32,000 nt of DNA, from positions 720,001 to 752,000 of the forward strand of contig OY969902.1 of assembly GCA_963704435.1 (NCBI GenBank), read 5' to 3'. The position numbers and the translations under genes are program-made. Shown one piece after another: positions 3,715 to 31,637 of this stretch. How positions within the stretch are numbered: position 1 is the first letter of the stretch; every line of letters begins with the position of its first letter. The notes below the pieces were generated by a model. The model ran no database searches and was not told the origin of the DNA. It saw only the letters and a program-made list of their open reading frames with translations. Origin of the DNA: an uncultured archaeon (lineage in GTDB: Archaea; Micrarchaeota; Micrarchaeia; Micrarchaeales; CABMGC01).

Positions 3715-3724
3715 CCGCTACCAC

Positions 3725-9964: not shown

Positions 9965-9985
9965 CCCTCTAAAATCATCCGCTTC

Positions 9986-12789: not shown

Positions 12790-15639
12790 CTAGAAGGCGA
12801 TGTCCAGGCTGGGCTTCAGCGGCGCAGCCCGGTCCGCGCGCGGCGACTTCGATTCGGACTCCTTCTCCACGACGACCCTGCACCCAAGCTGGGTGCCCAT
12901 GTACTCGGCAGCGTCGCTCAGTCCGTTGAACTCGTCCTCCTGCATCACGGTGACCTCCCTGAGACCGTTGACCCTCTTCGCCAGCGACGCGAGATATTTT
13001 GCGGCCTTCTCCTTGTCGAGCTTTCCGTCCTTCCTGACCGCCTCCATGGCCTTCTCCACGCTCTTCTTCTTCGCAACCTCGTTGGTGAGCTCCCTCTTCC
13101 AGTCGTCGGCGACCACAATCCTCGCCTCCCTCGCCCTCTTCCCGGCCTTCTTCTGCATCAGCGCGATTATCTGCTTGGCGTCGCTCACCACCCCGTCCAC
13201 GAGCTCCTCGCCAGCCTCAAGGTCGTCGCTCACCATGGCCCCGTTCGCCTCAGGCCACCTCTCGGCGGACGAGAAGGTGGTGTTTCCCAGCAGGTGCCAA
13301 AGCTCCTCCGAGAAGTGGGGGGCGATGGGCTGCAGCATTAGCGCCACCGAGGACAGGTACTCCTTCACGACTATCGCGTTGGCGCCTCCCCTGGCGAAGT
13401 ACCTCCTGAGTTCAACTACAGATCCGTAGAGCACCGCAACCGCGGCGTCCCTGAGCTCCAGCTTCTCCATGGCCGCCGTCGCGTCTGATATCTTCCTGTT
13501 GAGCTTCGAGTAGAGCCAGTAGTCCATCCTCTTGAGCTCACCGGCCTCGAGCCCGCCCGCCTTCTCCGCGGAGTCGAACAGGTACTGCAGCCTTGCCTTG
13601 ACCCCCTCCAGCGCGTCTGCGTTGAACTCGGAGTCCGTGAAGAGATCAGTCCCGGCTATCTCTATCACCCTCAGGGGATCGCCGCCATACTTCTCTATCC
13701 CGTCCCTCAGGGGCACGATGTTGCCGAGGCTCTTGCTCATCTTCTCCCCCTCGTAGTTGACGAACCCGTTGACCACTATCTGCTTCGGCCAGTACTTCCT
13801 GTCGAATATCGCGACGTGGTTGAAAAGATACATGGTGTAGTGGTTGTATATCAGGTCGGGGGCCGAGTGGCTCGACGCCTGCGCGTACCAGTAGTCGAAG
13901 GACTCCCTGCATTCGTTTATCAAAGTGTAGTCTATCTTCGTGGACGCTGCGACGGCCTCAACGTCGCCCTTGCCCAGGAACACGTAGTCGAAGAACTCGG
14001 GCTTCAGCGCCTCGGTGTCGACGTTAGCTATGAGGTTGGATATGGTGTAGAACGCGGGGTAGATCGTCGAGTCGGACAGCGACTCTATTATGAAGTTCCT
14101 GTCCAGCGGGAACTTGGTGCCCAGGCCCTGCGCCCTGGCCACCGCGCGGAGGTTTATCCACTCGGCCGCGGCCTCGAACGCGTTCCTGCTCTTCTGCGGG
14201 AATATGGCCATCTCGCCCAGCAGCTCCCTGACCAGCTTCTTCCATTCGGCGTCGCCGTAGTTTATGAACCACTGGTTCTCCACCGCCTTGACCACTATCT
14301 CGTAGCCGCACCTGCAGTAGACCGGCGCGTTCGCCAGCACGTAGATCTCTACCGCGTTCCCCTGCTTCAGCAGTTCCCCCTTGACCCTGTCCCTTGCCTC
14401 GGGCTCGCTCATTCCCTCGTAGCCCCTGACCAGCATCTTTCCCCAGTGCGACTCCTCCCTGTACTGGAGCTTCGTCGCGAACTCGAGCATGTCGTCTATA
14501 GCGTTCGCGTCCGTATGCAGGACCTCCAGGTACGCCAGCGCCGGCACGTCCACGTGCACCGGCCTCGCCTCCCCCGCCGATACGTCCCCCAAAGACCTCC
14601 CTATTTCCACATCTATTATCTTCTTCGGCTTTATCTCGGGCATCGCGTAGCCGCTGGCCCTGAGCCGCTCCAGGGCGGCGTAGTCGAACGGGGCATGTGC
14701 GGGCACGCTCATGACTATCCCTGTGCCTATGCCCTCCTTGACGAAGAAGCCCGGAAGTACCGGCACGGACTCGTTGGTGGCGGGGTTAACGCACTTCTTC
14801 TTGAGCATCTCCTTTCCGTCCGTCTCGCTCAATACTGTGACCTTCATCTGGCTCTTCAGCGCATCCGCGCACGCCTTGGAGAGGTAATAGTTCCCGTCGC
14901 GCCCCTCTATGCTGCACAGCGCGTACTTCGCGCCATCGTTGACGAATACGTTGGTGACCCCGAAGACCGTCTCGGGCCGGTAGGTCGCGCAGAGCACTGA
15001 GGCCTCCTCCCCCTCGACCCTGAACCTTATGGCCGTCTGCCTCTCTATGTCAGGCTCCACGTCGTGCTTGGTGTCGTGCATGCCCACTGCGTTGTTCTCG
15101 TTCGGGCACCATCCGACGGGATGGGATCCCTGCGTGAGGAAGCCGAGCCGGTGGAGTATGCCGAACTGCCACTCTATGAACTTGCTGAACCTCTCGTCCG
15201 TGGTGACGAACTTCCTGCGCCAGTCGATGCTGTAGCCAGCGAACCTCATCCCGCTCTCCATCTCCTTGGTGAAGTACTTGGTGATGTAGACGGGGTCGAC
15301 CATCTTCGCTATCTCGTCCTCGGGGATGTGGAAGAGCTTCAGCTCGTCGAACAGCTCCCTGTCGTTGTTCTTTATCCTCTTGGCGAACGCGAGGACCGGA
15401 GTGCCGGTGGCGTGGAAGCCCATCGGGAACAGGACGTTGAATCCCCGCATCCTCTTGTATCTCGCGAGCAGGTCGGCCGTGCCGAACGTCCTTAGGTGGC
15501 CTATGTGCTGCGGCGTGTTGACGTAGGGGAACGCGCCGAAGACCATGAAAGGGGGCTTATCCCCTATCTCCGGGGCGAATATCTTGGCATCGTCCCACGC
15601 CTTCTGCCACTTGGCCTCCATCTCAGCGTAGTCGATCAT
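12790..15639 (-). CDS. leuS: Leucine--tRNA ligase (archaeal type)
   Basis: 949 aa. PYVNTPQHIGHLRTF (HIGH), a large editing insertion, and GEKMSKSLGN (KMSKS). Length and C-terminal extension are typical of archaeal LeuRS. Confidence 0.97.
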   Translation of the reverse strand: MIDYAEMEAKWQKAWDDAKIFAPEIGDKPPFMVFGAFPYVNTPQHIGHLRTFGTADLLARYKRMRGFNVLFPMGFHATGTPVLAFAKRIKNNDRELFDELKLFHIPEDEIAKMVDPVYITKYFTKEMESGMRFAGYSIDWRRKFVTTDERFSKFIEWQFGILHRLGFLTQGSHPVGWCPNENNAVGMHDTKHDVEPDIERQTAIRFRVEGEEASVLCATYRPETVFGVTNVFVNDGAKYALCSIEGRDGNYYLSKACADALKSQMKVTVLSETDGKEMLKKKCVNPATNESVPVLPGFFVKEGIGTGIVMSVPAHAPFDYAALERLRASGYAMPEIKPKKIIDVEIGRSLGDVSAGEARPVHVDVPALAYLEVLHTDANAIDDMLEFATKLQYREESHWGKMLVRGYEGMSEPEARDRVKGELLKQGNAVEIYVLANAPVYCRCGYEIVVKAVENQWFINYGDAEWKKLVRELLGEMAIFPQKSRNAFEAAAEWINLRAVARAQGLGTKFPLDRNFIIESLSDSTIYPAFYTISNLIANVDTEALKPEFFDYVFLGKGDVEAVAASTKIDYTLINECRESFDYWYAQASSHSAPDLIYNHYTMYLFNHVAIFDRKYWPKQIVVNGFVNYEGEKMSKSLGNIVPLRDGIEKYGGDPLRVIEIAGTDLFTDSEFNADALEGVKARLQYLFDSAEKAGGLEAGELKRMDYWLYSKLNRKISDATAAMEKLELRDAAVAVLYGSVVELRRYFARGGANAIVVKEYLSSVALMLQPIAPHFSEELWHLLGNTTFSSAERWPEANGAMVSDDLEAGEELVDGVVSDAKQIIALMQKKAGKRAREARIVVADDWKRELTNEVAKKKSVEKAMEAVRKDGKLDKEKAAKYLASLAKRVNGLREVTVMQEDEFNGLSDAAEYMGTQLGCRVVVEKESESKSPRADRAAPLKPSLDIAF

Positions 15640-15817: not shown

Positions 15818-15826
15818 TTTTTATTG
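15818..15826 (+). promoter_or_regulatory. Candidate TATA box for the giant ORF
   Basis: tttttattg is centred about 27 nt upstream of ATG 15849, consistent with a leaderless archaeal transcript. No SD-like sequence lies in between. Confidence 0.35.
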
Positions 15827-15848
15827 TTTTGTTTCCTATACTGGCCAA

Positions 15849-18800
15849 ATGCCCGCTAAAATCGCGCAAGATCGGAATAATCTTGCATTTTCATTGCTAT
15901 TGGCGACCGTGTTGCTCGCTTTTGCCTCCACCACGGCAAGCGCCTCTAGCATAGTAAATACTATAATAGGGTTCAACGGACCGATCGGGATCGCGGTCTC
16001 GCCGTTCGGCTCCCAGGCCTACGTAGTAAACAACGGCAACAACACCGTGAGCGTAGTGACACTGAACGGCGTAAGCGGCGCAGCGAACGCCTTCTCCTTC
16101 AATGTCCCGTTCTCGGTCAATTCAGTCAACGTCGTATCGCTGATGATAGGCAACGGACTGGCGATAAACGGAGCCAACCAGCTCTATGCCACCGGAACGG
16201 CATTGACGGCCAACGCGCCAATCTTCATAGACTCCAACAACGCAATTTCGATCACCCAGGCGTCCGCGACGGTGAACGGATTCCTGTCGTCAGCCGACTG
16301 GAACACCTTCAGCACGGTCAACAGCAGGGCCTACGCATTCACGGTCACCAACATGCTCGGATACATAGGGAATGTCCTTTCGATATCGAACACGCCGTCC
16401 TTCATGACGGTCACTGCGAACATAATAGGCAACAACGCAGTCATCACTACGCTGACCGGGAACGTCATCGGGAGCACAGCATCCATCACCACGGTGAATG
16501 GCAACGTAATAGGCAATAATGCGGTATTCGGCTCATCAGTCAGTGCGGTGACACTCAACGGCAACGTCGTTGGAAACAACGCCGTGTTCACGTCAATCTC
16601 ATTCACTACACTGTCCGGTTCGACCTTCACAGGGAACATCGTTGGCAACAATGCCGTACTCACGAACATCTACGGAACACTCGCAGGGTCCAACACCATC
16701 TCATTCAGTACCGGCAACGGACAGACCCTGACGGCGAACATCATTGCGCCTAGTTCGATCTATGGAGTGATTTCCGGCGCAAACACGATCGCATTCTCGA
16801 CCGCGACTGGAACCACGGTCAATGCAAACACAGTCGGAACGACGGTCAGTGCGGTTACGCTTAACGGCAACGTCGTAGGCAACAACGCCGTGTTCACTTC
16901 AATATCATTCACTACACTGTCCGGTTCGACCTTCACAGGGAACATCGTTGGCAACAATGCCGTACTCACGAACATCTACGGAACACTCGCAGGGTCCAAC
17001 ACCATCTCATTCAGTACCGGCAACGGACAGACCCTGACGGCGAACATCATTGCGCCTAGTTCGATCTATGGAGTGATTTCCGGCGCAAACACGATCGCAT
17101 TCTCGACCGCGACTGGAACCACGGTCAATGCAAACACAGTCGGAACGACGGTCAGTGCGGTTACGCTTAACGGCAACGTCGTAGGCAACAACGCCGTGTT
17201 CACTTCAATATCATTCACTACACTGTCCGGTTCGACCTTCACAGGGAACATCGTTGGCAACAATGCCGTACTCACGAACATCTACGGAACACTCGCAGGG
17301 TCCAACACCATCTCATTCAGTACCGGCAACGGACAGACCCTGACGGCGAACATCATTGCGCCTAGTTCGATCTATGGAGTGATTTCCGGCGCAAACACGA
17401 TCGCATTCTCGACCGCGACTGGAACCACGGTCAATGCAAACACAGTCGGAACGACGGTCAGTGCGGTTACGCTTAACGGCAACGTCGTAGGCAACAACGC
17501 CGTGTTCACTTCAATATCATTCACTACACTGTCCGGTTCGACATTCTCGGGCAACCTGGTCGGGAACAACGCGGTACTTACTAACATCTACGGAACACTC
17601 GCAGGGTCCAACACCATCTCATTCAGTACCGGCAACGGACAGACCCTGACGGCGAACATCATTGCGCCTAGTTCGATCTATGGAGTGATTTCCGGCGCAA
17701 ACACGATCGCATTCTCGACCGCGACTGGAACCACGGTCAATGCAAACACAGTCGGAACGACGGTCAGTGCGGTTACGCTTAACGGCAACGTCGTAGGCAA
17801 CAACGCCGTGTTCACTTCAATATCATTCACTACACTGTCCGGTTCGACATTCTCGGGCAACCTGGTCGGGAACAACGCGGTACTTACTAACATCTACGGA
17901 ACACTCGCAGGGTCCAACACCATCTCATTCAGTACCGGCAACGGACAGACCCTGACGGCGAACATCATTGCGCCTAGTTCGATCTATGGAGTGATTTCCG
18001 GCGCAAACACGATCGCATTCTCGACCGCGACTGGAACCACGGTCAATGCAAACACAGTCGGAACGACGGTCAGTGCGGTTACGCTTAACGGCAACGTCGT
18101 AGGCAACAACGCCGTGTTCACTTCAATATCATTCACTACACTGTCCGGTTCGACATTCTCGGGCAACCTGGTCGGGAACAACGCGGTACTTACTAACATC
18201 TACGGAACACTCGCAGGGTCCAACACCATCTCATTCAGTACCGGCAACGGACAGACCCTGACGGCGAACATCATTGCGCCTAGTTCGATCTATGGAGTGA
18301 TTTCCGGCGCAAACACGATCGCATTCTCGACCGCGACTGGAACCACGGTCAATGCAAACACAGTCGGAACGACGGTCAGTGCGGTTACGCTTAACGGCAA
18401 CGTCGTAGGCAACAACGCCGTGTTCACTTCAATATCATTCACTACACTGTCCGGTTCGACATTCTCGGGCAACCTGGTCGGGAACAACGCGGTACTTACT
18501 AACATCTACGGAACACTCGCAGGGTCCAACACCATCTCATTCAGTACCGGCAACGGACAGACCCTGACGGCGAACATCATTGCGCCTAGTTCGATCTATG
18601 GAGTGATTTCCGGCGCAAACACGATCGCATTCTCGACCGCGACTGGAACCACGGTCAATGCAAACACAGTCGGAACGACGGTCAGTGCGGTTACGCTTAA
18701 CGGCAACGTCGTAGGCAACAACGCCGTGTTCACTTCAATATCATTCACTACACTGTCCGGTTCGACATTCTCGGGCAACCTGGTCGGGAACAACGCGGTA

Positions 18801-21800
18801 CTTACTAACATCTACGGAACACTCGCAGGGTCCAACACCATCTCATTCAGTACCGGCAACGGACAGACCCTGACGGCGAACATCATTGCGCCTAGTTCGA
18901 TCTATGGAGTGATTTCCGGCGCAAACACGATCGCATTCTCGACCGCGACTGGAACCACGGTCAATGCAAACACAGTCGGAACGACGGTCAGTGCGGTTAC
19001 GCTTAACGGCAACGTCGTAGGCAACAACGCCGTGTTCACTTCAATATCATTCACTACACTGTCCGGTTCGACATTCTCGGGCAACCTGGTCGGGAACAAC
19101 GCGGTACTTACTAACATCTACGGAACACTCGCAGGGTCCAACACCATCTCATTCAGTACCGGCAACGGACAGACCCTGACGGCGAACATCATTGCGCCTA
19201 GTTCGATCTATGGAGTGATTTCCGGCGCAAACACGATCGCATTCTCGACCGCGACTGGAACCACGGTCAATGCAAACACAGTCGGAACGACGGTCAGTGC
19301 GGTTACGCTTAACGGCAACGTCGTAGGCAACAACGCCGTGTTCACTTCAATATCATTCACTACACTGTCCGGTTCGACATTCTCGGGCAACCTGGTCGGG
19401 AACAACGCGGTACTTACTAACATCTACGGAACACTCGCAGGGTCCAACACCATCTCATTCAGTACCGGCAACGGACAGACCCTGACGGCGAACATCATTG
19501 CGCCTAGTTCGATCTATGGAGTGATTTCCGGCGCAAACACGATCGCATTCTCGACCGCGACTGGAACCACGGTCAATGCAAACACAGTCGGAACGACGGT
19601 CAGTGCGGTTACGCTTAACGGCAACGTCGTAGGCAACAACGCCGTGTTCACTTCAATATCATTCACTACACTGTCCGGTTCGACATTCTCGGGCAACCTG
19701 GTCGGGAACAACGCGGTACTTACTAACATCTACGGAACACTCGCAGGGTCCAACACCATCTCATTCAGTACCGGCAACGGACAGACCCTGACGGCGAACA
19801 TCATTGCGCCTAGTTCGATCTATGGAGTGATTTCCGGCGCAAACACGATCGCATTCTCGACCGCGACTGGAACCACGGTCAATGCAAACACAGTCGGAAC
19901 GACGGTCAGTGCGGTTACGCTTAACGGCAACGTCGTAGGCAACAACGCCGTGTTCACTTCAATATCATTCACTACACTGTCCGGTTCGACATTCTCGGGC
20001 AACCTGGTCGGGAACAACGCGGTACTTACTAACATCTACGGAACACTCGCAGGGTCCAACACCATCTCATTCAGTACCGGCAACGGACAGACCCTGACGG
20101 CGAACATCATTGCGCCTAGTTCGATCTATGGAGTGATTTCCGGCGCAAACACGATCGCATTCTCGACCGCGACTGGAACCACGGTCAATGCAAACACAGT
20201 CGGAACGACGGTCAGTGCGGTTACGCTTAACGGCAACGTCGTAGGCAACAACGCCGTGTTCACTTCAATATCATTCACTACACTGTCCGGTTCGACATTC
20301 TCGGGCAACCTGGTCGGGAACAACGCGGTACTTACTAACATCTACGGAACACTCGCAGGGTCCAACACCATCTCATTCAGTACCGGCAACGGACAGACCC
20401 TGACGGCGAACATCATTGCGCCTAGTTCGATCTATGGAGTGATTTCCGGCGCAAACACGATCGCATTCTCGACCGCGACTGGAACCACGGTCAATGCAAA
20501 CACAGTCGGAACGACGGTCAGTGCGGTTACGCTTAACGGCAACGTCGTAGGCAACAACGCCGTGTTCACTTCAATATCATTCACTACACTGTCCGGTTCG
20601 ACATTCTCGGGCAACCTGGTCGGGAACAACGCGGTACTTACTAACATCTACGGAACACTCGCAGGGTCCAACACCATCTCATTCAGTACCGGCAACGGAC
20701 AGACCCTGACGGCGAACATCATTGCGCCTAGTTCGATCTATGGAGTGATTTCCGGCGCAAACACGATCGCATTCTCGACCGCGACTGGAACCACGGTCAA
20801 TGCAAACACAGTCGGAACGACGGTCAGTGCGGTTACGCTTAACGGCAACGTCGTAGGCAACAACGCCGTGTTCACTTCAATATCATTCACTACACTGTCC
20901 GGTTCGACATTCTCGGGCAACCTGGTCGGGAACAACGCGGTACTTACTAACATCTACGGAACACTCGCAGGGTCCAACACCATCTCATTCAGTACCGGCA
21001 ACGGACAGACCCTGACGGCGAACATCATTGCGCCTAGTTCGATCTATGGAGTGATTTCCGGCGCAAACACGATCGCATTCTCGACCGCGACTGGAACCAC
21101 GGTCAATGCAAACACAGTCGGAACGACGGTCAGTGCGGTTACGCTTAACGGCAACGTCGTAGGCAACAACGCCGTGTTCACTTCAATATCATTCACTACA
21201 CTGTCCGGTTCGACATTCTCGGGCAACCTGGTCGGGAACAACGCGGTACTTACTAACATCTACGGAACACTCGCAGGGTCCAACACCATCTCATTCAGTA
21301 CCGGCAACGGACAGACCCTGACGGCGAACATCATTGCGCCTAGTTCGATCTATGGAGTGATTTCCGGCGCAAACACGATCGCATTCTCGACCGCGACTGG
21401 AACCACGGTCAATGCAAACACAGTCGGAACGACGGTCAGTGCGGTTACGCTTAACGGCAACGTCGTAGGCAACAACGCCGTGTTCACTTCAATATCATTC
21501 ACTACACTGTCCGGTTCGACATTCTCGGGCAACCTGGTCGGGAACAACGCGGTACTTACTAACATCTACGGAACACTCGCAGGGTCCAACACCATCTCAT
21601 TCAGTACCGGCAACGGACAGACCCTGACGGCGAACATCATTGCGCCTAGTTCGATCTATGGAGTGATTTCCGGCGCAAACACGATCGCATTCTCGACCGC
21701 GACTGGAACCACGGTCAATGCAAACACAGTCGGAACGACGGTCAGTGCGGTTACGCTTAACGGCAACGTCGTAGGCAACAACGCCGTGTTCACTTCAATA

Positions 21801-23753
21801 TCATTCACTACACTGTCCGGTTCGACATTCTCGGGCAACCTGGTCGGGAACAACGCGGTACTTACTAACATCTACGGAACACTCGCAGGGTCCAACACCA
21901 TCTCATTCAGTACCGGCAACGGACAGACCCTGACGGCGAACATCATTGCGCCTAGTTCGATCTATGGAGTGATTTCCGGCGCAAACACGATCGCATTCTC
22001 GACCGCGACTGGAACCACGGTCAATGCAAACACAGTCGGAACGACGGTCAGTGCGGTTACGCTTAACGGCAACGTCGTAGGCAACAACGCCGTGTTCACT
22101 TCAATATCATTCACTACACTGTCCGGTTCGACATTCTCGGGCAACCTGGTCGGGAACAACGCGGTACTTACTAACATCTACGGAACACTCGCAGGGTCCA
22201 ACACCATCTCATTCAGTACCGGCAACGGACAGACCCTGACGGCGAACATCATTGCGCCTAGTTCGATCTATGGAGTGATTTCCGGCGCAAACACGATCGC
22301 ATTCTCGACCGCGACTGGAACCACGGTCAATGCAAACACAGTCGGAACGACGGTCAGTGCGGTTACGCTTAACGGCAACGTCGTAGGCAACAACGCCGTG
22401 TTCACTTCAATATCATTCACTACACTGTCCGGTTCGACATTCTCGGGCAACCTGGTCGGGAACAACGCGATCTTCACCACAATAAATGCGATAACCTTTA
22501 GTGGGAACATTGTAGGCAACAATGCAGTATTCTCCGGATCAATAAACGTAGGTTCGTGCATAGGCTGCGGCACTGGCAGCGGAGTTACCAGCATCAACGG
22601 TCTTACGGGCGCCGTGAATGTAGTCGGACAGAATGTGATTACTGCTTATGCAAGCAGCCAGAATGTAATATTGTCGATACCTCAGGCAACGGGCTCGCTC
22701 AGCGGCTATCTTGCATCAGGAGATTGGACCATCTTTAACGGGAAGTTCGGAACGGCGGGCACCGGACTTTATGCTTCAGCGACTACGGTCAACTTGGCAC
22801 CCCTCACAGCAGGATATGGGATAAGCATAGGCACCAATGGCAATACGATAATCGCAACGGGTGTCCCTTCAATCTCCGCAGGTACAGGAATACTAGTCAA
22901 CACCGCGAACCAGATTTCGCTAATACCCCTTACCGCAGGCACTGGAATAAGCATAGGCGGTAGCGGCAATACAATAACCTGTACGGGCTGCTCAGGCACT
23001 GCATTCAGTACGGCGGGCACGGGACTTTATTCATCAGGAACAACTGTATCCCTTGCACCTCTGACGGCAGGATTTGGAATACGTGTCGGAACTAACGGGA
23101 ACACGATAACTGCGACAGGAGTTCCTTCAATAAGCGCGGGGACTGGCATAGCGATTACGACCTCCAACCAGATTGCGCTGGCTACCCCGACGAACACCCT
23201 GCCTATCTCAATCACGAGCACAAACAACATCGCCTTGAACATAGGGGCTGGCCTTATGACATCGGCAGGCAAGCTCGCGCTCATACCCGCTAATTCGGAG
23301 AACCCAGCCAACCCGACAGGTACTACTTCAAGCAGCTTATATGTTTACATGGGCACGGGCTTAGTTGGAGGCAGCGGCACTGCGCTCGGCTTCACGCCTG
23401 CGGCAGGAGGGAGCGGCAACGTTATGTTCCAATGCCAGCTTGATGCAGCAGACAACAAGGTATCCTCAACAACGTCGGTCACGAACACCATAAGCATCAA
23501 GCTAGGATATGGCAGCACTGGTAGCAACCCAGTCAATGGAGGAGCCGTGGGCTCAAACTCATTCATAGGACCCGTTCTGGGCCCATATACCTCTTATCCG
23601 GCAACAACTCTTGTGCACACTGACATTGCCCAGATTATCACAGGGCTATCACCAGGAACTAAATACTGGGTCGATTTTGCGGTAGAATCCAGCTCAAGCA
23701 GCAATACGGGTTCGATAAGCAACATCTGGTGCCAGTGGTGGAACGTTGGGTGA
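15849..23753 (+). CDS. Giant secreted repeat protein (2,634 aa): signal peptide, one YVTN-type blade, about 19.4 x 102-aa repeats, tail-fibre-like shaft and C-terminal head
   Basis: Single uninterrupted ORF. The N-terminus MPAKIAQDRNNLAFSLLLATVLLAFASTTASA-SS looks like a Sec signal. IIGFNGPIGIAVSPFGSQAYVVNNGNNTVSVVTL matches the YVTN beta-propeller repeat pattern. It is followed by the repeat array and a C-terminal region with no TM segment. Confidence 0.9.
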   Translation: MPAKIAQDRNNLAFSLLLATVLLAFASTTASASSIVNTIIGFNGPIGIAVSPFGSQAYVVNNGNNTVSVVTLNGVSGAANAFSFNVPFSVNSVNVVSLMIGNGLAINGANQLYATGTALTANAPIFIDSNNAISITQASATVNGFLSSADWNTFSTVNSRAYAFTVTNMLGYIGNVLSISNTPSFMTVTANIIGNNAVITTLTGNVIGSTASITTVNGNVIGNNAVFGSSVSAVTLNGNVVGNNAVFTSISFTTLSGSTFTGNIVGNNAVLTNIYGTLAGSNTISFSTGNGQTLTANIIAPSSIYGVISGANTIAFSTATGTTVNANTVGTTVSAVTLNGNVVGNNAVFTSISFTTLSGSTFTGNIVGNNAVLTNIYGTLAGSNTISFSTGNGQTLTANIIAPSSIYGVISGANTIAFSTATGTTVNANTVGTTVSAVTLNGNVVGNNAVFTSISFTTLSGSTFTGNIVGNNAVLTNIYGTLAGSNTISFSTGNGQTLTANIIAPSSIYGVISGANTIAFSTATGTTVNANTVGTTVSAVTLNGNVVGNNAVFTSISFTTLSGSTFSGNLVGNNAVLTNIYGTLAGSNTISFSTGNGQTLTANIIAPSSIYGVISGANTIAFSTATGTTVNANTVGTTVSAVTLNGNVVGNNAVFTSISFTTLSGSTFSGNLVGNNAVLTNIYGTLAGSNTISFSTGNGQTLTANIIAPSSIYGVISGANTIAFSTATGTTVNANTVGTTVSAVTLNGNVVGNNAVFTSISFTTLSGSTFSGNLVGNNAVLTNIYGTLAGSNTISFSTGNGQTLTANIIAPSSIYGVISGANTIAFSTATGTTVNANTVGTTVSAVTLNGNVVGNNAVFTSISFTTLSGSTFSGNLVGNNAVLTNIYGTLAGSNTISFSTGNGQTLTANIIAPSSIYGVISGANTIAFSTATGTTVNANTVGTTVSAVTLNGNVVGNNAVFTSISFTTLSGSTFSGNLVGNNAVLTNIYGTLAGSNTISFSTGNGQTLTANIIAPSSIYGVISGANTIAFSTATGTTVNANTVGTTVSAVTLNGNVVGNNAVFTSISFTTLSGSTFSGNLVGNNAVLTNIYGTLAGSNTISFSTGNGQTLTANIIAPSSIYGVISGANTIAFSTATGTTVNANTVGTTVSAVTLNGNVVGNNAVFTSISFTTLSGSTFSGNLVGNNAVLTNIYGTLAGSNTISFSTGNGQTLTANIIAPSSIYGVISGANTIAFSTATGTTVNANTVGTTVSAVTLNGNVVGNNAVFTSISFTTLSGSTFSGNLVGNNAVLTNIYGTLAGSNTISFSTGNGQTLTANIIAPSSIYGVISGANTIAFSTATGTTVNANTVGTTVSAVTLNGNVVGNNAVFTSISFTTLSGSTFSGNLVGNNAVLTNIYGTLAGSNTISFSTGNGQTLTANIIAPSSIYGVISGANTIAFSTATGTTVNANTVGTTVSAVTLNGNVVGNNAVFTSISFTTLSGSTFSGNLVGNNAVLTNIYGTLAGSNTISFSTGNGQTLTANIIAPSSIYGVISGANTIAFSTATGTTVNANTVGTTVSAVTLNGNVVGNNAVFTSISFTTLSGSTFSGNLVGNNAVLTNIYGTLAGSNTISFSTGNGQTLTANIIAPSSIYGVISGANTIAFSTATGTTVNANTVGTTVSAVTLNGNVVGNNAVFTSISFTTLSGSTFSGNLVGNNAVLTNIYGTLAGSNTISFSTGNGQTLTANIIAPSSIYGVISGANTIAFSTATGTTVNANTVGTTVSAVTLNGNVVGNNAVFTSISFTTLSGSTFSGNLVGNNAVLTNIYGTLAGSNTISFSTGNGQTLTANIIAPSSIYGVISGANTIAFSTATGTTVNANTVGTTVSAVTLNGNVVGNNAVFTSISFTTLSGSTFSGNLVGNNAVLTNIYGTLAGSNTISFSTGNGQTLTANIIAPSSIYGVISGANTIAFSTATGTTVNANTVGTTVSAVTLNGNVVGNNAVFTSISFTTLSGSTFSGNLVGNNAVLTNIYGTLAGSNTISFSTGNGQTLTANIIAPSSIYGVISGANTIAFSTATGTTVNANTVGTTVSAVTLNGNVVGNNAVFTSISFTTLSGSTFSGNLVGNNAVLTNIYGTLAGSNTISFSTGNGQTLTANIIAPSSIYGVISGANTIAFSTATGTTVNANTVGTTVSAVTLNGNVVGNNAVFTSISFTTLSGSTFSGNLVGNNAIFTTINAITFSGNIVGNNAVFSGSINVGSCIGCGTGSGVTSINGLTGAVNVVGQNVITAYASSQNVILSIPQATGSLSGYLASGDWTIFNGKFGTAGTGLYASATTVNLAPLTAGYGISIGTNGNTIIATGVPSISAGTGILVNTANQISLIPLTAGTGISIGGSGNTITCTGCSGTAFSTAGTGLYSSGTTVSLAPLTAGFGIRVGTNGNTITATGVPSISAGTGIAITTSNQIALATPTNTLPISITSTNNIALNIGAGLMTSAGKLALIPANSENPANPTGTTSSSLYVYMGTGLVGGSGTALGFTPAAGGSGNVMFQCQLDAADNKVSSTTSVTNTISIKLGYGSTGSNPVNGGAVGSNSFIGPVLGPYTSYPATTLVHTDIAQIITGLSPGTKYWVDFAVESSSSSNTGSISNIWCQWWNVG
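16539..22469 (+). repeat. 306-bp (102-codon) in-frame tandem repeat: 19 full units plus a 117-bp partial unit
   Basis: Units start at 16539+306k (checked at 16539, 16845, 17457 and 22353). Three 5' units are type A (TGNIV patch), followed by 16 full type-B units (SGNLV patch) and a partial type-B unit. Minus-strand 71-aa shadow ORFs recur every 306 bp with identical translations. Confidence 0.95.
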
Positions 23754-23830
23754 GGAGATGAGAAGATTGCTCCGTGGTCTTTGCTTTAACTGGGCGGAAT
23801 CGGATTCGCTTCCAATACGATAGTGCTGAA

Positions 23831-26014
23831 ATGAGAGTTGGACTTTTACTTGGCTTAGTCCTCGTGGCCATCCTGATGGGGACGTCAAGTGCCGCAACGG
23901 TATTTGGATTCAACTCACCCTACTCTGCCGCGATCTCCCCCACCCAGAATTATGTCTATGTAACCAATAGCGGAAACAACACAGTAAGCATCGTCAATTC
24001 CATGAACGACATGATAATCGGAACGATAACCGGCTTTGATATTCCCACCGGAATCGCAATAACCCCAAACGGAACCTTCCTGTATGTTGCCAACTTTGGC
24101 GATAACGAGCTGGCGAAAGTAAGCACCGCGACCGGCATGATCATCGACTTTACTGGTGGGTTTAATCAGCCAGAGTATGTTTCCCTGTCTCCGGACGGGA
24201 AGACCGCATATGTCACTAACCAAGGAAACGGCCAGGTAAGCGCGGTGGCCCTGGCTCCGCGGCCTCTTCCAACAATCGCGCCAATAAATCCCGCTTATGA
24301 CCTTGGCCAGCCAATAACCCTTACCGCCAGCTGGGCCGCGAGCTCGCCTCCTTATACGGCAAACTGGATCATAGAACAGGGATCCAGCCCGGTATTCAAT
24401 GCCCAATATTCTGGAATAACCGGCCTTAACAGCATACTGTCCCTGTCATCAACGACCCTTGGCGTGGGAGACTTTGCCGCCAACGTGATTGTAGAAGACG
24501 GGTCATCAGTCATGACGAGCTCGGCAGAGGACGCATTCGCTATAAGTTCAATATTGAATCCAGCGAATCCCGTCCCATATGATCCTGTCATAACTAGCGG
24601 CCAGAGCGTGACCCTCACGGCAAACCCCAACGGGGGATCGGGCTCCTACTCCTATACATGGTACGTAAGTTTGACCTCGCCTTGCAGTTCCAGCTGGATA
24701 GAGGTGGGGACGGGCCCGTCGATCACGGTGGTTCCTGCAGCCAACTTATACTATTGCTATGTCGTTACGGACAGCGCGACAACGCCCGTGTCTGGGACAT
24801 CCGGTTCTGACCTAGTCACTGTCAATCAGGGCAGCTCCACTACCACGAGCAGCACCGGCAGCACTGGAAGCGGACCGGGCGGAGGAGGAGGCGGAGGCGT
24901 CCAAAAGCCAATAATAATGGAGGCAATCTCGAACTCGACCTCCACATTAGTGAATTTGCTGGGCGAGAAAACAGGCCTCAACATAACCTCCTCGGTGCCG
25001 AGCCAGAATGAGGACATAATCCTAAACATCGCGTCTCTCAATACGTTTAATGTGACGCTGCACGGGGAAAGGCTTAATTTCACCACAAACTTCATATCCC
25101 CGACAAGCGCCGGAATGACGATAAACAACCAAGAATACGTGTTTTCCCAGAATACCACTTTCCTGATAAAACAGAAGAATTACAACTATACGCTTAGCGT
25201 TGAACTATTCAACATATCGATCCTGCCTATCCTGAATACCGTAGAGCTTGCAGTAAGCTCCGAGCCAAACCCCATAAACATTACCGCGCAGAATTTCACA
25301 ATGGCCATACTGTCGAACCAGACCCTCTCCGTCCAGAACCTGACCTCTTCAAGATTCGTCCCGTCAATCCCCACAGGGTACTATAAGCAACTGGTTCAGA
25401 ACGTAAGCGTGCGACAGATACCTGGCACCCCGAATCCAAGGATAAATACGACGGTCGGCGTCGCGATAAAGTACAACTGCAGCATCCCTTCCTACGATGA
25501 GATCCCGCTCATCCTATCCAATTACTCGTGGGCGCAGGTCAGCTCGTTCACCGTGAGACCCAATGACTGCGTGGTGACCTTTTCGTTCCATTCGGATCCA
25601 GTCATGGCCCTTACCAGGTACGTGGGTCCCTCAAACAAAACCAAGCCGCCCACCACGACTATCCCCTACTGCCCTGTGGAATCGCAGGCCGGGTGCATCG
25701 CAATCCCTGCAAACTCGCTTTCACACACATCCACGACAAGCATTCCCTATCAACAGTCCAACCATAAAATAAATGTGCCGCCTTTAGCGCTCTATTCCCT
25801 TGGAGCAGTGGCCGCAGCCGTCATAGCCTGGATCGCCTATAGGAGGTATCGGCTAAGGCCGCGCAAGCCGAAAGAAGGAGCCCGCTCTAAGGTAAGCGGG
25901 GCCAAGCCGCAGGAGGAAGGTCCGCGCGCCGGAAAGAAGGCAAAGAGGGGCAAATCCTCGAAGGCCGGGCAATCGGACAGGCTCAAATCCATAAGCGACG
26001 AGCTGGAAGAGTAG
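23831..26014 (+). CDS. Membrane-anchored surface (glyco)protein: signal peptide, 3 YVTN blades, 2 PKD/Ig-like domains, Gly hinge, sequon-rich stalk, C-terminal TM and basic tail
   Basis: ATG 23831 gives MRVGLLLGLVLVAILMGTSSAA (signal-like); the track's GTG 23774 extension is not hydrophobic. Three blades of pattern (F/Y)V(T/A)N.G.N.(V/L)S. Two domains with PITLTASW...PPYTANW and SVTLTANPNGGSGSYSYTWY. GGGGGGG. C-terminal LYSLGAVAAAVIAWIAY followed by RRYRLRPRKPKEG.... Confidence 0.85.
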   Translation: MRVGLLLGLVLVAILMGTSSAATVFGFNSPYSAAISPTQNYVYVTNSGNNTVSIVNSMNDMIIGTITGFDIPTGIAITPNGTFLYVANFGDNELAKVSTATGMIIDFTGGFNQPEYVSLSPDGKTAYVTNQGNGQVSAVALAPRPLPTIAPINPAYDLGQPITLTASWAASSPPYTANWIIEQGSSPVFNAQYSGITGLNSILSLSSTTLGVGDFAANVIVEDGSSVMTSSAEDAFAISSILNPANPVPYDPVITSGQSVTLTANPNGGSGSYSYTWYVSLTSPCSSSWIEVGTGPSITVVPAANLYYCYVVTDSATTPVSGTSGSDLVTVNQGSSTTTSSTGSTGSGPGGGGGGGVQKPIIMEAISNSTSTLVNLLGEKTGLNITSSVPSQNEDIILNIASLNTFNVTLHGERLNFTTNFISPTSAGMTINNQEYVFSQNTTFLIKQKNYNYTLSVELFNISILPILNTVELAVSSEPNPINITAQNFTMAILSNQTLSVQNLTSSRFVPSIPTGYYKQLVQNVSVRQIPGTPNPRINTTVGVAIKYNCSIPSYDEIPLILSNYSWAQVSSFTVRPNDCVVTFSFHSDPVMALTRYVGPSNKTKPPTTTIPYCPVESQAGCIAIPANSLSHTSTTSIPYQQSNHKINVPPLALYSLGAVAAAVIAWIAYRRYRLRPRKPKEGARSKVSGAKPQEEGPRAGKKAKRGKSSKAGQSDRLKSISDELEE

Positions 26015-26101
26015 ATTGCGGGAGGAGTTACTGGAAGGAAGTCCCGCGCTCGCGGAAACGGAAAATCTTTAAAAGGTTAGGTGCCTGTTAATCCTAGCAA
26101 G

Positions 26102-26854
26102 ATGATTGCGATGCCCGATCCGCGCATAATAGGGGTTGTCAGCCAGAAAGGGGGAGTCGGCAAGACCGCGATAGCCGTGAACCTCTCCGTTATCCTGAGG
26201 CTCAAGGGCTACAGGGTGCTGACCGTTGACGGCGACACCAGCAATCCGAACATGGGCATCCAGCTGGGGATGGAGAACGCAAACATAGGCTTCAAGGAGC
26301 TCGCCACAAAGAAAAGCAAGGTGGACGGCGTAGTGACGATACACGGCACCACTGGCCTTCACGTAGTCCTGGGGACCCTCCGCTCAAAGCCGTACCTCCT
26401 TACCAAAGCCGACGTAATCCGGCTGAAGTCCAAGCTCAAGGAATGCGACTATGATTTCGTGATACTAGACACCGCGCCCGGATTCTACGCGACCGAGGCG
26501 ATGGAGCTCCTTGACGAGGCGATACTCGTCGCCACGCCCGACACGCCAGCGGTGACCGGAATCCTGCGGCTCAACAGGATCCTGAAGGGGATGGGGGCAG
26601 AGCGCTACATCGTGCTCAACAGGGTGAAGGGGAAGAAATACGAGCTCCAGCCTGATGAGATAGAGGACGCCAGCGAGGACAAGGTGGTTGCCGCCATACC
26701 TGATGACGACATAGTCAACGAGAGCCTTGCCGAGAGGATACCCGCGTGCATGATGGGCAGGAACTCCGATTTCTCCAAAGCCGTGACTAAGCTCGCGGTC
26801 AAGCTGTCCGCAGGCAAGAAGAGAGCAAGCGCCCCCTTAGCTAGCTCGCCATGA
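26102..26854 (+). CDS. MinD/ParA-family P-loop ATPase
   Basis: IIGVVSQKGGVGKTAIAVNLS (deviant Walker A with signature Lys), LTVDGD, and DFVILDTAPG (Walker B). ATG 26102 is preferred over the track's GTG 26081, because a ctttaaaag TATA-like element (26067-26075) lies about 30 nt upstream of it. Confidence 0.9.
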   Translation: MIAMPDPRIIGVVSQKGGVGKTAIAVNLSVILRLKGYRVLTVDGDTSNPNMGIQLGMENANIGFKELATKKSKVDGVVTIHGTTGLHVVLGTLRSKPYLLTKADVIRLKSKLKECDYDFVILDTAPGFYATEAMELLDEAILVATPDTPAVTGILRLNRILKGMGAERYIVLNRVKGKKYELQPDEIEDASEDKVVAAIPDDDIVNESLAERIPACMMGRNSDFSKAVTKLAVKLSAGKKRASAPLASSP

Positions 26855-26885
26855 GCGCCTGGAAGGCAGCCGAATCCCGTACTGC

Positions 26886-26930
26886 TTTATATATCTTGGT
26901 CTGGAAATAAACTAGTCTAGGATTAGACCA
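26886..26930 (+). promoter_or_regulatory. Candidate promoter (TATA tttatatat) plus inverted-repeat operator upstream of the PadR-ABC operon
   Basis: TATA-like tttatatat at 26886-26894. Outer inverted repeat TGGTCT (26897-26902) / AGACCA (26925-26930). Inner palindrome GTCTA-N4-TAGAC (26915-26928). All lie between the TATA box and ATG 26940. Confidence 0.4.
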
Positions 26931-26939
26931 TACTATCTG

Positions 26940-27302
26940 ATGCGCATGTTTGACAAGGACGCCCTATTCAAGAAGTTCGACGCCGCGATGATGCACGGGG
27001 CTCTGAAGCTCATCGTGCTCGCTCACCTCCGCGACAGCGGCACGTACCCATATGCTATGCTGAAGCACTTCAAGGGCAGCGGCCACTCATTCCTCGCGGG
27101 CATGGGCAAGTCGGAGATGTACAACATAATCAATTCGCTGGAGAAGGAGGGCTTCGTGTCTTACCGCATAGTCAAGAAGGGAGCGCGGTCGCAGAAGCAC
27201 TATGCGCTCACGCCGAAGGGAAGGAAGGTGATCGGGACATCGAAGCAGATAATGACCCGGGCTATGGGCGACTTCAGGAAGCTTGTGAAGAGTGAGTTCT
27301 GA
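26940..27302 (+). CDS. PadR-family transcriptional regulator
   Basis: 120 aa. LKLIVLAHLRDSGTYPYAMLKHF...MYNIINSLEKEGFVSYRIVKKGARSQKHYALTPKGRKV fits the PadR winged-helix pattern (LEKxGxV...RKxYxLTxxG). Its stop overlaps the next ATG (TGATG). Confidence 0.8.
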   Translation: MRMFDKDALFKKFDAAMMHGALKLIVLAHLRDSGTYPYAMLKHFKGSGHSFLAGMGKSEMYNIINSLEKEGFVSYRIVKKGARSQKHYALTPKGRKVIGTSKQIMTRAMGDFRKLVKSEF

Positions 27303-28294
27303 TGGACGACTATGCGATAGAAATGGACAACGCGGTCCAGAAGTTCGGCGACTTCATCGCAGTCGACGGGATCACCCTGAAGATAAAGAAGGGCGAGATA
27401 TTCGGGCTCTTGGGGCCGAACGGCGCCGGAAAGAGCACCATAATAAACATGCTTCTCGGGCTGCTGAAGCCCACTTCGGGAAGCGTCTTCGTGAACGGTG
27501 TCGACATGCAGAAGGACCCGAACCGCGCGAAGAAGACGCTGGGCGTGGTCACGCAGGAGACCGTCGTCGAGCCCGAGCTAACCGCAGAGCAGAACCTGAT
27601 GATCTTCGGAGACCTCTACCACGTGCCCAGAGAGAAGCTTCCCAAGAAGATAGACTTCCTGCTGGAGCTCGCCGACCTGAAAAATTTCCGCAAGTCGTAC
27701 GCAGGCACCTTCTCGGGAGGAATGAAGCGCAGGCTCGAGACGGTGAAGGCCCTCGTGCACGACCCCGACATAATCTTCATGGACGAGCCGACGACCGGGC
27801 TTGACATCCAAAACAGGACGAGGATGTGGCAGCTCCTTAGGCAGATAAACAGGGAGAGGAACGTCACGGTGCTCATGACCACGCAATACCTGGAGGAGGC
27901 GGACCAGATGTGCAACAGGATCGCGATAATAGACCACGGGAAGCTCGTGGCAGTCGGAACGCCCGCGGAACTGAGGCAGAAGATCGGGCTCTATGACATC
28001 ATAGAGATCGCCGCAGACAAGGAGGACCTGCAGAAGGTCGCGCAGATATTCAAGAAGCTGGGCCTGGAACCGCAGGCCCTCAGCAACAAGGTGATCTGTT
28101 CTGTAAAGAGCGACGCGGTGAAGACGATAGAGAGGCTGATAAAGACCATAACCGCCGCAGGCATAAAGATACAGAGCGTAAGTCTGCACGAGCCCACGAT
28201 AGACGACGTCTTCCTGAAGCTGACGGGCTCCTCTGTGAGGGACGCGACAGGCGAGTACGTGGGAAAGGGCATATCGTTCGGAGGTAGAAGATAG
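27302..28294 (+). CDS. ABC transporter ATP-binding protein (ABC-2/DrrA-like subfamily)
   Basis: 330 aa. GEIFGLLGPNGAGKST (Walker A), FSGGMKRRLE (signature), IIFMDEPTTGLD (Walker B), TTQYLEEAD (H-loop). Confidence 0.95.
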   Translation: MDDYAIEMDNAVQKFGDFIAVDGITLKIKKGEIFGLLGPNGAGKSTIINMLLGLLKPTSGSVFVNGVDMQKDPNRAKKTLGVVTQETVVEPELTAEQNLMIFGDLYHVPREKLPKKIDFLLELADLKNFRKSYAGTFSGGMKRRLETVKALVHDPDIIFMDEPTTGLDIQNRTRMWQLLRQINRERNVTVLMTTQYLEEADQMCNRIAIIDHGKLVAVGTPAELRQKIGLYDIIEIAADKEDLQKVAQIFKKLGLEPQALSNKVICSVKSDAVKTIERLIKTITAAGIKIQSVSLHEPTIDDVFLKLTGSSVRDATGEYVGKGISFGGRR

Positions 28295-28295
28295 C

Positions 28296-29402
28296 ATGAG
28301 CATAATGGAAGACGCGACGACCCTGTTCACAAGGGAGATGCTGATATTCAAGAAGAATATCACCGCGGGCTTAGCCAGGACCATCATCTTTCCTGTCATA
28401 TTCATACTTCTCCTCGGAAGCATAGGCAACACCCCGCAGCACGTCCCGATAGCGGTGGTAAACTTCGACAACGGCGCGGCATCGCTGGCGTTCATAAACA
28501 TGCTTACCTCGGGCGGGGCGCTCAGCGTCAAGGGAATGACTGACCAGCAGGATGCGATGAGCCTCCTGGCACAGGGAAGCGTCGCGGCCGTGGTCGTCAT
28601 ACCCAGCGGCTTCTCGAGCTCCAGTTCATCCGATGTCTTCGTCTACGTGGATGCCTCGTCGTCCGCCTCGGCCGAGGTAGCTACCAGCGTGATAAGCTCG
28701 GCTGCGTCAAGCATGAACTCGAAGCTTGTCGCAAGGAACGCGCAGGGCGAGGGGATATCCGTAATCACCAACCCCGCCTACGGGGCGACCAGCAACAACA
28801 TCAGCTTCACCGTAGCCGGAATACTGGTGCTCGTAGCGACTACGGGAGCCATATTCAGCGGCGGGTTCACGGTGCTGCAGGACAGGCAGCTCGGCAACCT
28901 CAAGGCGTTCCTCGTGACCCCCATAAACAAGGTCTCGATACTCCTCAGCAAGGTGTTCTACGGCACGTTCCAGTCCGCGTTCAGCGCATACGTTGCGCTC
29001 GCCATCGGGCTGCTGTACGGCGCGAGCATCGCATCGGGCGTTGTCGGAATGCTGGAGATACTCTGGTTCATATTCCTCGTAGGCTTCGGGTTCAGCTGCA
29101 TAGCGGTGTCCCTGGCGATAAGGATGAAGCAGACGCAGACCTACGCCCTTGTCGCGCAGGTGGTGTCGCTCCCGCTTTCGTTCCTCGCAGGCGCACTGGT
29201 CCCCGTGTCCTCGCTGCCCGCCTTCCTGGCCCCCCTGGCGGCCTTCAACCCGCTGACCTACGCAGTCAACGCAGTAAGGGACATAATGCTCAAGGGCTCG
29301 CTTCCGATCGGGGCGTTCCTCGTCGATTCGACGATACTGATAGCCTTCTCAATAGTCATGCTGGCGATAAGCGTCTTGCTATTTAAGAATATAAACGAAT
29401 AA
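28296..29402 (+). CDS. ABC-2 type transporter permease
   Basis: 368 aa. N-terminal TM, a large extracytoplasmic loop, then five C-terminal TM helices, the typical ABC-2 topology. It starts 1 nt after the ATPase stop. Confidence 0.88.
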   Translation: MSIMEDATTLFTREMLIFKKNITAGLARTIIFPVIFILLLGSIGNTPQHVPIAVVNFDNGAASLAFINMLTSGGALSVKGMTDQQDAMSLLAQGSVAAVVVIPSGFSSSSSSDVFVYVDASSSASAEVATSVISSAASSMNSKLVARNAQGEGISVITNPAYGATSNNISFTVAGILVLVATTGAIFSGGFTVLQDRQLGNLKAFLVTPINKVSILLSKVFYGTFQSAFSAYVALAIGLLYGASIASGVVGMLEILWFIFLVGFGFSCIAVSLAIRMKQTQTYALVAQVVSLPLSFLAGALVPVSSLPAFLAPLAAFNPLTYAVNAVRDIMLKGSLPIGAFLVDSTILIAFSIVMLAISVLLFKNINE

Positions 29403-29410
29403 GTGATCTC

Positions 29411-30985: not shown

Positions 30986-30986
30986 A

Positions 30987-31637
30987 ATGCAATCCAAAGC
31001 TGAGAGCGCAGGAAGCGGCCCTGCCCTTATTGCGGAGAAGACCTTAGAAGCCTGCCTTGCGCTCGCGCAGCGGGCCAAGCAGGGCTGCCTGATCGTCTGC
31101 GAGACCAAGCCGATATCTAAGCAGTACTACAAGGACTCCAATAGGGATTTCTGCCACCCCGACCTGAGCCCGATCTCCATCTTCGACCCGGATGACAGGC
31201 AGGGCCTTGAGAAGCTCGCTGCGGTGGACGGCGCCCTGATACTCGACTCATCTGGTGCGATGCTACATTATGGGGCTACCCTACTCCATTCCACGAGCAT
31301 GCGCGGACACGGCAAGCGCCACGCCTTCGCGCGTGGCACGAGCATGGCGGTGAAGGGCGTAGTCTGCATTTTGCATTCGGAAGAGGACGGACACACGAGG
31401 TCGTTCAGGGACGGGTTTCTTGTCGTTGACATCGCGCCTGACGGGAAGCTGAAGAACATGACGCGCCATCGCATCGCCGCGCTCCTCTGCAACCCCCTCA
31501 CCGCCACATTGGCCGTGTCGGGCGTAGTGACCAGCATACTGTCGCTGAATCCATTGCCGGCCATCATTACGATAAGCGGCAGCACGATCTTGATCAGGCA
31601 GGGGTTCCTAGGGTTGAAGAAAACCATCGAGGGTTAG
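30987..31637 (+). CDS. Divergent DisA_N/DAC (diadenylate cyclase)-like domain protein with a hydrophobic C-terminal tail
   Basis: 216 aa. Aligns by eye to CdaA-type DAC: QGCLIVCET vs IGALIVIER; AVDGALILDSSGAMLHYGATLL vs LHDGAVIIKNNEIAAAACYL (DGA motif kept); HGKRHAFARGTS vs LGTRHRAAVGIS (GTRHR becomes GKRHA); VVCILHSEEDGHTRSF vs LTIIVSEETGGVSV. The C-terminus LTATLAVSGVVTSILSLNPLPAIITISGSTILI is hydrophobic. Confidence 0.6.
   Translation: MQSKAESAGSGPALIAEKTLEACLALAQRAKQGCLIVCETKPISKQYYKDSNRDFCHPDLSPISIFDPDDRQGLEKLAAVDGALILDSSGAMLHYGATLLHSTSMRGHGKRHAFARGTSMAVKGVVCILHSEEDGHTRSFRDGFLVVDIAPDGKLKNMTRHRIAALLCNPLTATLAVSGVVTSILSLNPLPAIITISGSTILIRQGFLGLKKTIEG

Follow-up and report, generated by a model that had tools for sequence, protein, structure and literature searches.

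The 32-kb window examined here (the whole stretch of 32,000 nucleotides, from an uncultured archaeon of the Micrarchaeota) carries two consecutive genes for surface proteins: a giant one, whose product we call the fibre, and a shorter one starting 77 nt downstream, whose product we call the anchor. An earlier note, made from the letters alone, had described a giant open reading frame (ORF) with one N-terminal YVTN blade and no membrane anchor, followed by a membrane-anchored neighbour with three blades. We confirmed the positions of both genes (15849-23753 and 23831-26014), the blade numbers (by a blade hidden Markov model (HMM) run over the six frames of the window), the C-terminal membrane anchor of the neighbour (a hydrophobic stretch at residues 652-670, within a helix at residues 650-675 in the AlphaFold2 (AF2) model) and its absence from the giant protein, whose translated C-terminus is not hydrophobic. 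We argue below, tentatively, that a beta-propeller is completed in trans by these blades and that the fibre is thereby docked onto the anchor. The features of the pair, all on the plus strand, are as follows.

15849-23753 (+): giant fibre gene, 2634 residues (ORF list, translation)
15849-15944 (+): fibre signal peptide, residues 1-32, cut at ...TTASA/SS (read from the sequence; same layout in four orthologous fibres)
15945-15971 (+): leading spare strand of the fibre, SSIVNTIIG, resembling the outer (D) strand between blades
15957-16064 (+): single YVTN blade of the fibre, strands A-B-C without a closing D (blade HMM, 1L0Q, BLASTP)
16065-16538 (+): neck, with the motif NGFLSSADWNTF at 16275-16310; homologous to the repeat proteins P0253, P0259 and P0262
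16539-22469 (+): fibre shaft, 19.4 tandem copies of a 306-nt (102-residue) unit, 99% identical (Tandem Repeats Finder)
22470-23753 (+): distal shaft and lineage-specific C-terminal tip (translation; SINGLTGAVNV at 22590-22622, SGYLASGDWTIFNGK at 22701-22745)
23754-23830 (+): spacer from the fibre stop to the anchor ATG, 77 nt, without a T-run (sequence read directly)
23831-26014 (+): anchor gene, 727 residues, ATG at 23831 (identical to the database protein P0001)
23894-24265 (+): three YVTN blades, half a propeller (blade HMM; layout short D0, ABCD, ABCD, ABC)
24269-24829 (+): two immunoglobulin (Ig)-like (PKD-like) domains (AF2 beta strands at residues 148-238, predicted local distance difference test (pLDDT) about 50-68)
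24830-24898 (+): Ser/Thr/Gly-rich linker (sequence; Gly run kept in five of five anchors)
24944-25783 (+): stalk of ~280 residues with 15 N-X-S/T sequons, common to P0003, P0006 and P0007
25784-25840 (+): transmembrane helix, residues 652-670, hydrophobic LALYSLGAVAAAVIAWIAY (AF2 helix at residues 650-675)
25841-26011 (+): basic cytoplasmic tail, variable across lineages (sequence)

The blade HMM, built from the anchor blades only, recovered in the six frames of the window the three anchor blades (23894-24019, 24020-24145 and 24146-24265, at 64.6, 63.7 and 61.3 bits) and the single fibre blade (15957-16064; 35.9 bits, E 1.6e-11), and no further ones. The stretch directly following the fibre signal peptide (SSIVNTIIGFNGPIGIAVSPFGSQAYVVNNGNNTVSVVTL) had been read by the earlier note as the module with which the anchor also begins, and BLASTP agrees: residues 35-72 of the fibre align with each of the three anchor blades (55, 46 and 47% identity, E 7e-9 to 1e-7). 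Against the YVTN repeat model TIGR02276 the anchor scores 38.8 bits, above the curated cut-off of 27.85, and the fibre blade alone 19 bits, under this whole-protein cut-off. The best sequence match of the fibre blade in the PDB is the solved YVTN propeller 1L0Q, six of whose blades it hits (summed E 3.7e-17). In the AF2 model of the anchor, residues 33-140 form 4+4+3 strands (pLDDT 70-82) and are followed by non-propeller domains. As the HMM scan yields 1 + 3 blades and the model 4+4+3 strands, hidden blades that might complete either ring on its own are, as far as these tools can see, not there.

Each chain consequently has too few blades to close a ring alone, as had been suspected: three in the anchor and one in the fibre, versus six or seven in relatives. 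Among the best 120 homologues of the anchor we counted 54 with seven blades, 32 with six, several multiples and exactly five with three, and these five are the ones paired with fibres. A profile scan of genome contigs with the anchor alignment returned no three-blade anchor among its best 80 loci, in which ordinary YVTN propellers dominate.

A one-blade fibre gene stands directly upstream of a three-blade anchor gene, on the same strand, in five lineages (the window and the loci L001, L005, L007 and L008), with gaps of 16-77 nt between the two genes. Every upstream gene encodes a signal peptide, one blade and then a shaft of GN-x-x-G-x-N-A-x-F repeats. The four loci outside the window are arranged as follows.

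L001: fibre of 1799 residues, anchor P0002, gap 29 nt (counted from the last fibre ORF), flanked by a LeuRS remnant
L005: fibre of 428 residues, anchor P0004, gap 16 nt, flanked by SerRS and eRF1
L007: fibre of 257 + 1351 residues (frameshifted), anchor P0005, gap 16 nt, flanked by SerRS and eRF1
L008: fibre of 2087 residues, anchor P0009, gap 37 nt, flanked by a glycosyltransferase (GT4) and SRP54

The co-occurrence across relatives that the earlier note had raised is thus seen in five independent lineages, and since the flanking genes differ between loci, the linkage cannot be put down to an inherited neighbourhood alone. The blade is conserved in the fibre (67% identity across the five lineages) to the level found per anchor blade class (66-71%), and in distant lineages the anchor keeps its blades (60-69% identity) against 3-29% in the remainder. 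The shafts and tips are unrelated between lineages, with three types of tip (that of the window differs both from those of L001/L005/L007 and from that of L008). Each lineage has its own long-period array (306 nt in the window, 342/345 nt in L001, 318 nt in L007 and 342/540 nt in L008), which argues that the shafts were homogenised independently per lineage. The copies within the arrays at L001 4781-9433, L007 5717-9350 and L008 3968-9038 are 94-99% identical within their lineage. The 3' end of the L001 fibre (9400-9971) is frameshifted and leaves the tip as a separate ORF of 87 residues, which is probably the frameshifted C-terminus of the fibre, and a TnpB-like gene (Cas12f1-like_TNB; 2809-3999) lies just upstream of this orthologous fibre.

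No intact unpaired fibre or anchor was seen in this small sample, and no fibre was found beside the complete-propeller relatives (P0003, P0006 and the gene upstream of P0003). A local phmmer search recovers all fibres easily, the short L005 one included, and a fibre-specific DNA pattern run over metagenome contigs retrieved only two extra copies of the L005-type fibre and a degenerate sixth anchor. This sixth three-blade anchor, from peat metagenomes (L092, L095 and L097), is preceded by a membrane-protein gene and not by a fibre, and is apparently a copy undergoing decay in peat Micrarchaeota; in L095 (3509-5097) it is truncated at ~200 residues and has an IS200-like transposase gene ~450 nt downstream, and in L092 it is shorter still. 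A sixth one-blade fibre (P0252; L102 10001-11885) ends after 500 residues with a garbled C-terminus and overlaps an ORF of 136 residues. This ORF matches the MinD/ParA-like protein of the window (E 1e-12) over the C-terminal half only (residues 139-239), and the gene of that protein directly follows the anchor in the window. Since the fibre of L102 abuts the C-terminal half of this gene, a deletion or an assembly collapse has removed the position at which the anchor would be expected.

Within the repeat, the strands of a blade run A-B-C-D, D being the outer strand (..IVGTITG) that leads to the next blade. The anchor is laid out as a short D0 (TVFG), ABCD, ABCD and ABC, after which come the Ig-like domains, and the fibre as a full D0' (SIVNTIIG) and ABC, after which comes the shaft; each module thus opens with one spare outer strand and ends in a blade that lacks its own, as an exchange of strands would require. 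The spare strand of the fibre shares 55% identity with the one that links anchor blades 1 and 2 (22% with those at other positions), and its residues I35, T38 and G41 are invariant in the fibre alignment. This is the Sec13 type of layout, i.e. an open propeller, a single-blade partner of three strands and an N-terminal velcro strand.

The size of the ring can be approached through the complete relatives that share the stalk of the anchor, which carry 6+6 blades (six sets were counted, each of exactly six). The first blade set of P0003, modelled with a 20-row alignment, gave a confident structure (pLDDT 90.5, predicted TM-score (pTM) 0.89) with 23 strands and a velcro contact at its N-terminus; its best global fit is the six-bladed Pizza6 (TM-score 0.87 by target length, root-mean-square deviation 2.2-2.5 A, 29% identity), and it fits a six-bladed NHL domain as well, seven-bladed hits staying near a TM-score of 0.7. 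A six-bladed closed form accordingly occurs in the lineage, and because the stalk-sharing complete relatives have six-blade sets, one of them modelled closed, we read the anchor as half of a six-bladed ring. The arithmetic offered by the earlier note (3 + 3x1 = 6) would be consistent with this model, as would the closing of a ring of six either by two anchors or by one anchor and three fibre blades. Two anchors and one fibre could make up a ring of seven, which is less likely; seven-bladed rings also occur among more distant homologues. The stoichiometry may therefore be one anchor with three fibre chains, two anchors with one fibre, or another.

Under the arrangement that we propose, the anchor would be a single-pass membrane protein whose glycosylated stalk and Ig-like domains hold the half propeller in a membrane-distal position, and the fibre would be secreted, without an anchor of its own, presenting one matching blade at its N-terminus. 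The leading strand of the fibre would then take the place of the outer strand missing from anchor blade 3, its three-strand blade would occupy the next position, and the ring would close as a six-bladed (less likely a seven-bladed) propeller shared between chains. The shaft would hold the lineage-specific tip away from the cell, and the tip would most plausibly adhere to the host archaeon or to the biofilm matrix. Several lines of evidence favour such docking: an exported fibre without an anchor shares only its blade with a conserved neighbour; this blade is the sole conserved part of the fibre, and the count of three occurs only beside fibres; and the strand ends of the two modules are complementary. 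We give this docking model, in which a propeller is completed in trans, a probability of roughly 0.45, the physical contact between the two proteins being something that we infer. The fuller picture, in which fibre blades (possibly of a trimer) complete the half propeller to a six-bladed ring that serves as a modular socket for fibres with varied tips, and thereby host attachment, we regard as doubtful.

Several observations weigh against docking. The pairs number only five, every one of them from a metagenome assembly and from a single archaeal group, and the AF2 model of the full-length anchor, with a mean pLDDT of 39.9, is too low for a fold search, its stalk not being confident. Evidence for a trimeric shaft was sought with the repeat profile, a segment and the whole C-terminus against the PDB, Pfam and phage genomes, and gave no match. 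Furthermore, a three-blade Pizza fragment closes a ring alone as a homodimer (PMC7734218), and an anchor that did the same would have no position left for the fibre blade. As three-blade Pizza fragments dimerise and WD40 fragments form rings, separate homo-oligomers constitute a serious rival, in which two anchors would form the six-bladed ring, the fibres would bundle through their blades (e.g. six chains, or two trimers), and the adjacency of the genes would reflect a shared surface structure and not mixed blades. Six-bladed propellers do form again from dimers and trimers of Pizza fragments with three and two blades (PMC7734218), WD40 blade fragments form homo-oligomeric propellers of variable size (PMC6805158), and the complete relative P0003 superposes best on Pizza6, of which three blades are half. 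Single WD40 blades, on the other hand, did not fold alone (PMC6805158), and separate rings would leave the fibre without attachment to the cell and account neither for three-blade anchors being found solely beside one-blade fibres nor for a fibre leading strand that copies an internal strand of the anchor, for which reasons we consider this rival rather unlikely.

The fibre blade might also play no part in docking. It is most similar to anchor blade 1 (57%), itself placed directly after the signal peptide, and could on this account be the relic of a duplication of the gene's 5' end (signal peptide and first blade), a point that weighs against docking as well; or it could be an independent unit for binding sugars or other ligands, in keeping with the role in cell-cell contact generally proposed for the YVTN/PKD surface proteins of ARMAN/Micrarchaeota (PMC5498576). 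The fibre would in that event be held otherwise (e.g. by an uncleaved signal peptide) or released. A relic would be expected to decay, yet the blade is the one part of the fibre conserved over five lineages, and at the level of the anchor blades; one or three blades form no stable propeller surface alone, relatives needing six or seven; and in the exceptional loci both partners degenerate together. We accordingly assign a low probability to this explanation in all its variants. That the giant ORF merely arose from mis-assembled repeats, and corresponds to no real protein, is very improbable: repeat number does vary by assembly (19.4, 12.4 and about 1.4) and frameshifts occur within the repeats of related loci, but the blade, neck and tip are situated beyond the repeat array and show the same sequence in independent assemblies, the frame stays open across 7.9 kb, and orthologous fibres exist in four other lineages, which leaves only the copy number uncertain.

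An unexpected side observation concerns the N-glycosylation sequons (N-X-S/T) of the two proteins. The five fibres (window 15849-23753; L001 4265-9400; L005 8698-9984; L007 5929-9984; L008 3700-9963) contain 0-1 sequons versus the 10-73 expected from composition, and in 0 of 500-2000 shuffles was the count as low; shuffling ignores the repeat structure, which makes the expectation rough, and the pattern still recurs in five unrelated shafts. The sole fibre sequon is a conserved NNT within the blade. The anchor, for which 11 sequons would be expected, has 18, and 15 of these lie in the stalk. The lack of sequons would fit an exported shaft that has to be kept clear of glycans on its surface.

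The remaining parts of the fibre have few recognisable relatives. Neither the neck of the window nor the shaft repeat matches any Pfam family, and the shaft and tip found no match in the PDB, Pfam or phage genomes (tblastn for the latter). The repeat protein P0259, a homologue of the neck (E 1.5e-27 to the neck query), carries PF22337 phage tail fibre repeats (32.5 bits, cut-off 27), and through it the neck motif NGFLSSADWNTF gives a hint that the fibre may be of a viral type, which is usually trimeric. A shaft folded as a triple beta-spiral was considered as well; the C-terminal G-x-G-I/L repeats are similar by eye, no match in the PDB, Pfam or phage genomes was obtained, and the idea is not relied upon here. 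Several copies of the neck motif (GFLSSTDWSTFNSK) are found in a secreted protein of 728 residues with Kelch-like repeats (P0254, P0260; L097 1101-3287), which has no YVTN blade, and the neck is on this evidence a separate module common to surface proteins. Likewise, the shaft sub-repeat (IYGTIAGSNTISAST...) and motifs such as GDGSQLSGI recur in P0261 and P0280, both of which are large and have no YVTN blade, which means that the shaft repeat exists outside fibre-anchor pairs. The same fibre gene occurs in three assemblies with 19.4 (2634 residues), 12.4 (L002 4851-8639, 1920 residues) and ~1.4 copies of the repeat (P0251, 798 residues), a spread that reflects either real variation in length or assembly collapse. 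Long arrays of near-identical repeats, variable copy numbers and variable tips are typical of adhesins, and an adhesive role of the fibre is what we infer from them.

As for the anchor, its parts run in the order signal peptide, three 42-residue repeats, two Ig-like domains, linker, stalk, helix and tail. The Ig-like domains score 13.9 bits with the PKD model (below the cut-off of 23.5), and their region has a Hoc-like PHROG match (E 7.5e-4); P0009 has no such domain, and P0004 and P0005 have one. The tails of the anchors (P0007 was also compared) differ wholly, being basic in the window, made of pentapeptide repeats in P0004 and P0005, and marked by a cysteine motif of the CxxCxGxG type in P0009, which suggests different intracellular partners.

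The genomic surroundings of the pair are those of a Micrarchaeota chromosome. Upstream, on the minus strand, lies a housekeeping gene for LeuRS (12790-15639), whose product is 55-65% identical to many NCBI sequences labelled Candidatus Micrarchaeota, Micrarchaeia or Micrarchaeaceae; other housekeeping genes of the window code for CysRS, CTP synthase, a DUF2666 protein and a Rieske protein, and a cluster mate of the anchor homologue P0004 is annotated as Micrarchaeaceae. An A/T-rich box (TTTTTATT) at 15820-15827, read by eye 22-29 nt upstream of the fibre ATG, stands where the archaeal TATA box of a leaderless transcript would be expected; the 77-nt spacer before the anchor shows, also by eye, neither a similar box nor a T-run. 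The fibre and anchor genes are presumably co-transcribed. Downstream (26081-31637), one strand carries genes for a MinD/ParA-like ATPase, a PadR regulator, an ABC ATPase, an ABC-2 permease and a CARDB/NEW3 surface protein of 524 residues, after which comes a protein with a diadenylate cyclase (DAC) domain.

To our knowledge, propellers are nearly always built from a single chain, and natural rings of mixed chains are found mainly in the eukaryotic coat proteins Sec13 and Seh1. The Seh1 propeller is completed by Nup85, and natural two-blade lectins such as RSL form oligomeric propellers. The earlier note knew of no described precedent for a split-propeller pair of anchor and fibre; precedents do exist, both for propellers closed in trans (Sec13; PMC2922654) and for those made of fragments (Pizza; PMC7734218). 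Sec13 has an open propeller, to which Sec31, Nup145C or Sec16 contributes one closing blade in trans; Sec16 supplies three strands of it while residues 1-6 of Sec13 supply the outermost one as a velcro closure (PMC2922654). The likeness to the pair described here lies in an open propeller closed by the single N-terminal blade of an elongated partner, with a matching layout of strands. It is an analogy only, given that there is no sequence homology, that the blades here are YVTN/NHL-like and come without an ACE1 helical domain, and that Sec13 is eukaryotic, cytoplasmic, of the WD40 type and split 6+1, whereas the present pair is archaeal, extracellular, of the YVTN type and split 3+1, with a putative contact. 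Unlike the 6+1 of Sec13, a 3+1 split would therefore need more than one extra blade.

Three-blade fragments that dimerise to six-bladed rings (Pizza2/Pizza3 and WRAP; PMC7734218, PMC6805158) resemble the anchor, yet they are homo-oligomers and mostly engineered, whereas here two natural genes with three and one blades form a conserved pair. The surface layer protein of Methanosarcina mazei (1L0Q) combines the same repeat family with Ig-like domains on an archaeal surface; its complete seven-bladed propeller in a single chain contrasts with the three and one blades found here, and the anchor does not have this architecture of a complete YVTN propeller with PKD. The YVTN, PKD and CARDB proteins of Mia14 (a relative of ARMAN-2) belong to the same archaeal group, comprise the same types of domains and have been proposed to act in host contact, but they were described with complete repeat domains and with neither a fibre-anchor pair nor split propellers (PMC5498576). 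Propellers closed in trans, propellers from fragments and these types of domains on archaeal surfaces are thus already known; in the literature we encountered no account of a two-gene 3+1 split that is conserved, or of a fibre joined to an anchor by such a split.

In Sulfolobales, the adjacent genes of SlaA and SlaB encode an unanchored outer protein and the membrane-anchored stalk that holds it. A stalk of this kind has been raised as a possibility for the S-layer of Micrarchaeum harzensis (10.1101/2021.04.28.441871). Neither system is homologous to the present pair, whose outer partner is a long repeat fibre and not a lattice protein. The idea that the pair forms the main S-layer was dropped, the described S-layer protein of Micrarchaeota belonging to another family (10.1101/2021.04.28.441871), and neither fibre nor anchor matches an S-layer family of the PF05123 type in Pfam or NCBIfam.

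Cultivated Micrarchaeota, which belong to the DPANN, grow attached to other archaea (PMC5498576, PMC8975820). If true, docking through shared blades would provide a prokaryotic and extracellular example of propeller closure in trans, as well as a living counterpart of the fragment-assembly experiments on propeller evolution. The two modules involved are small (about 125 and 45 residues) and easily expressed, which makes the idea testable. Moreover, the pair would be a definite candidate for what keeps long adhesive fibres attached to host-dependent DPANN cells.

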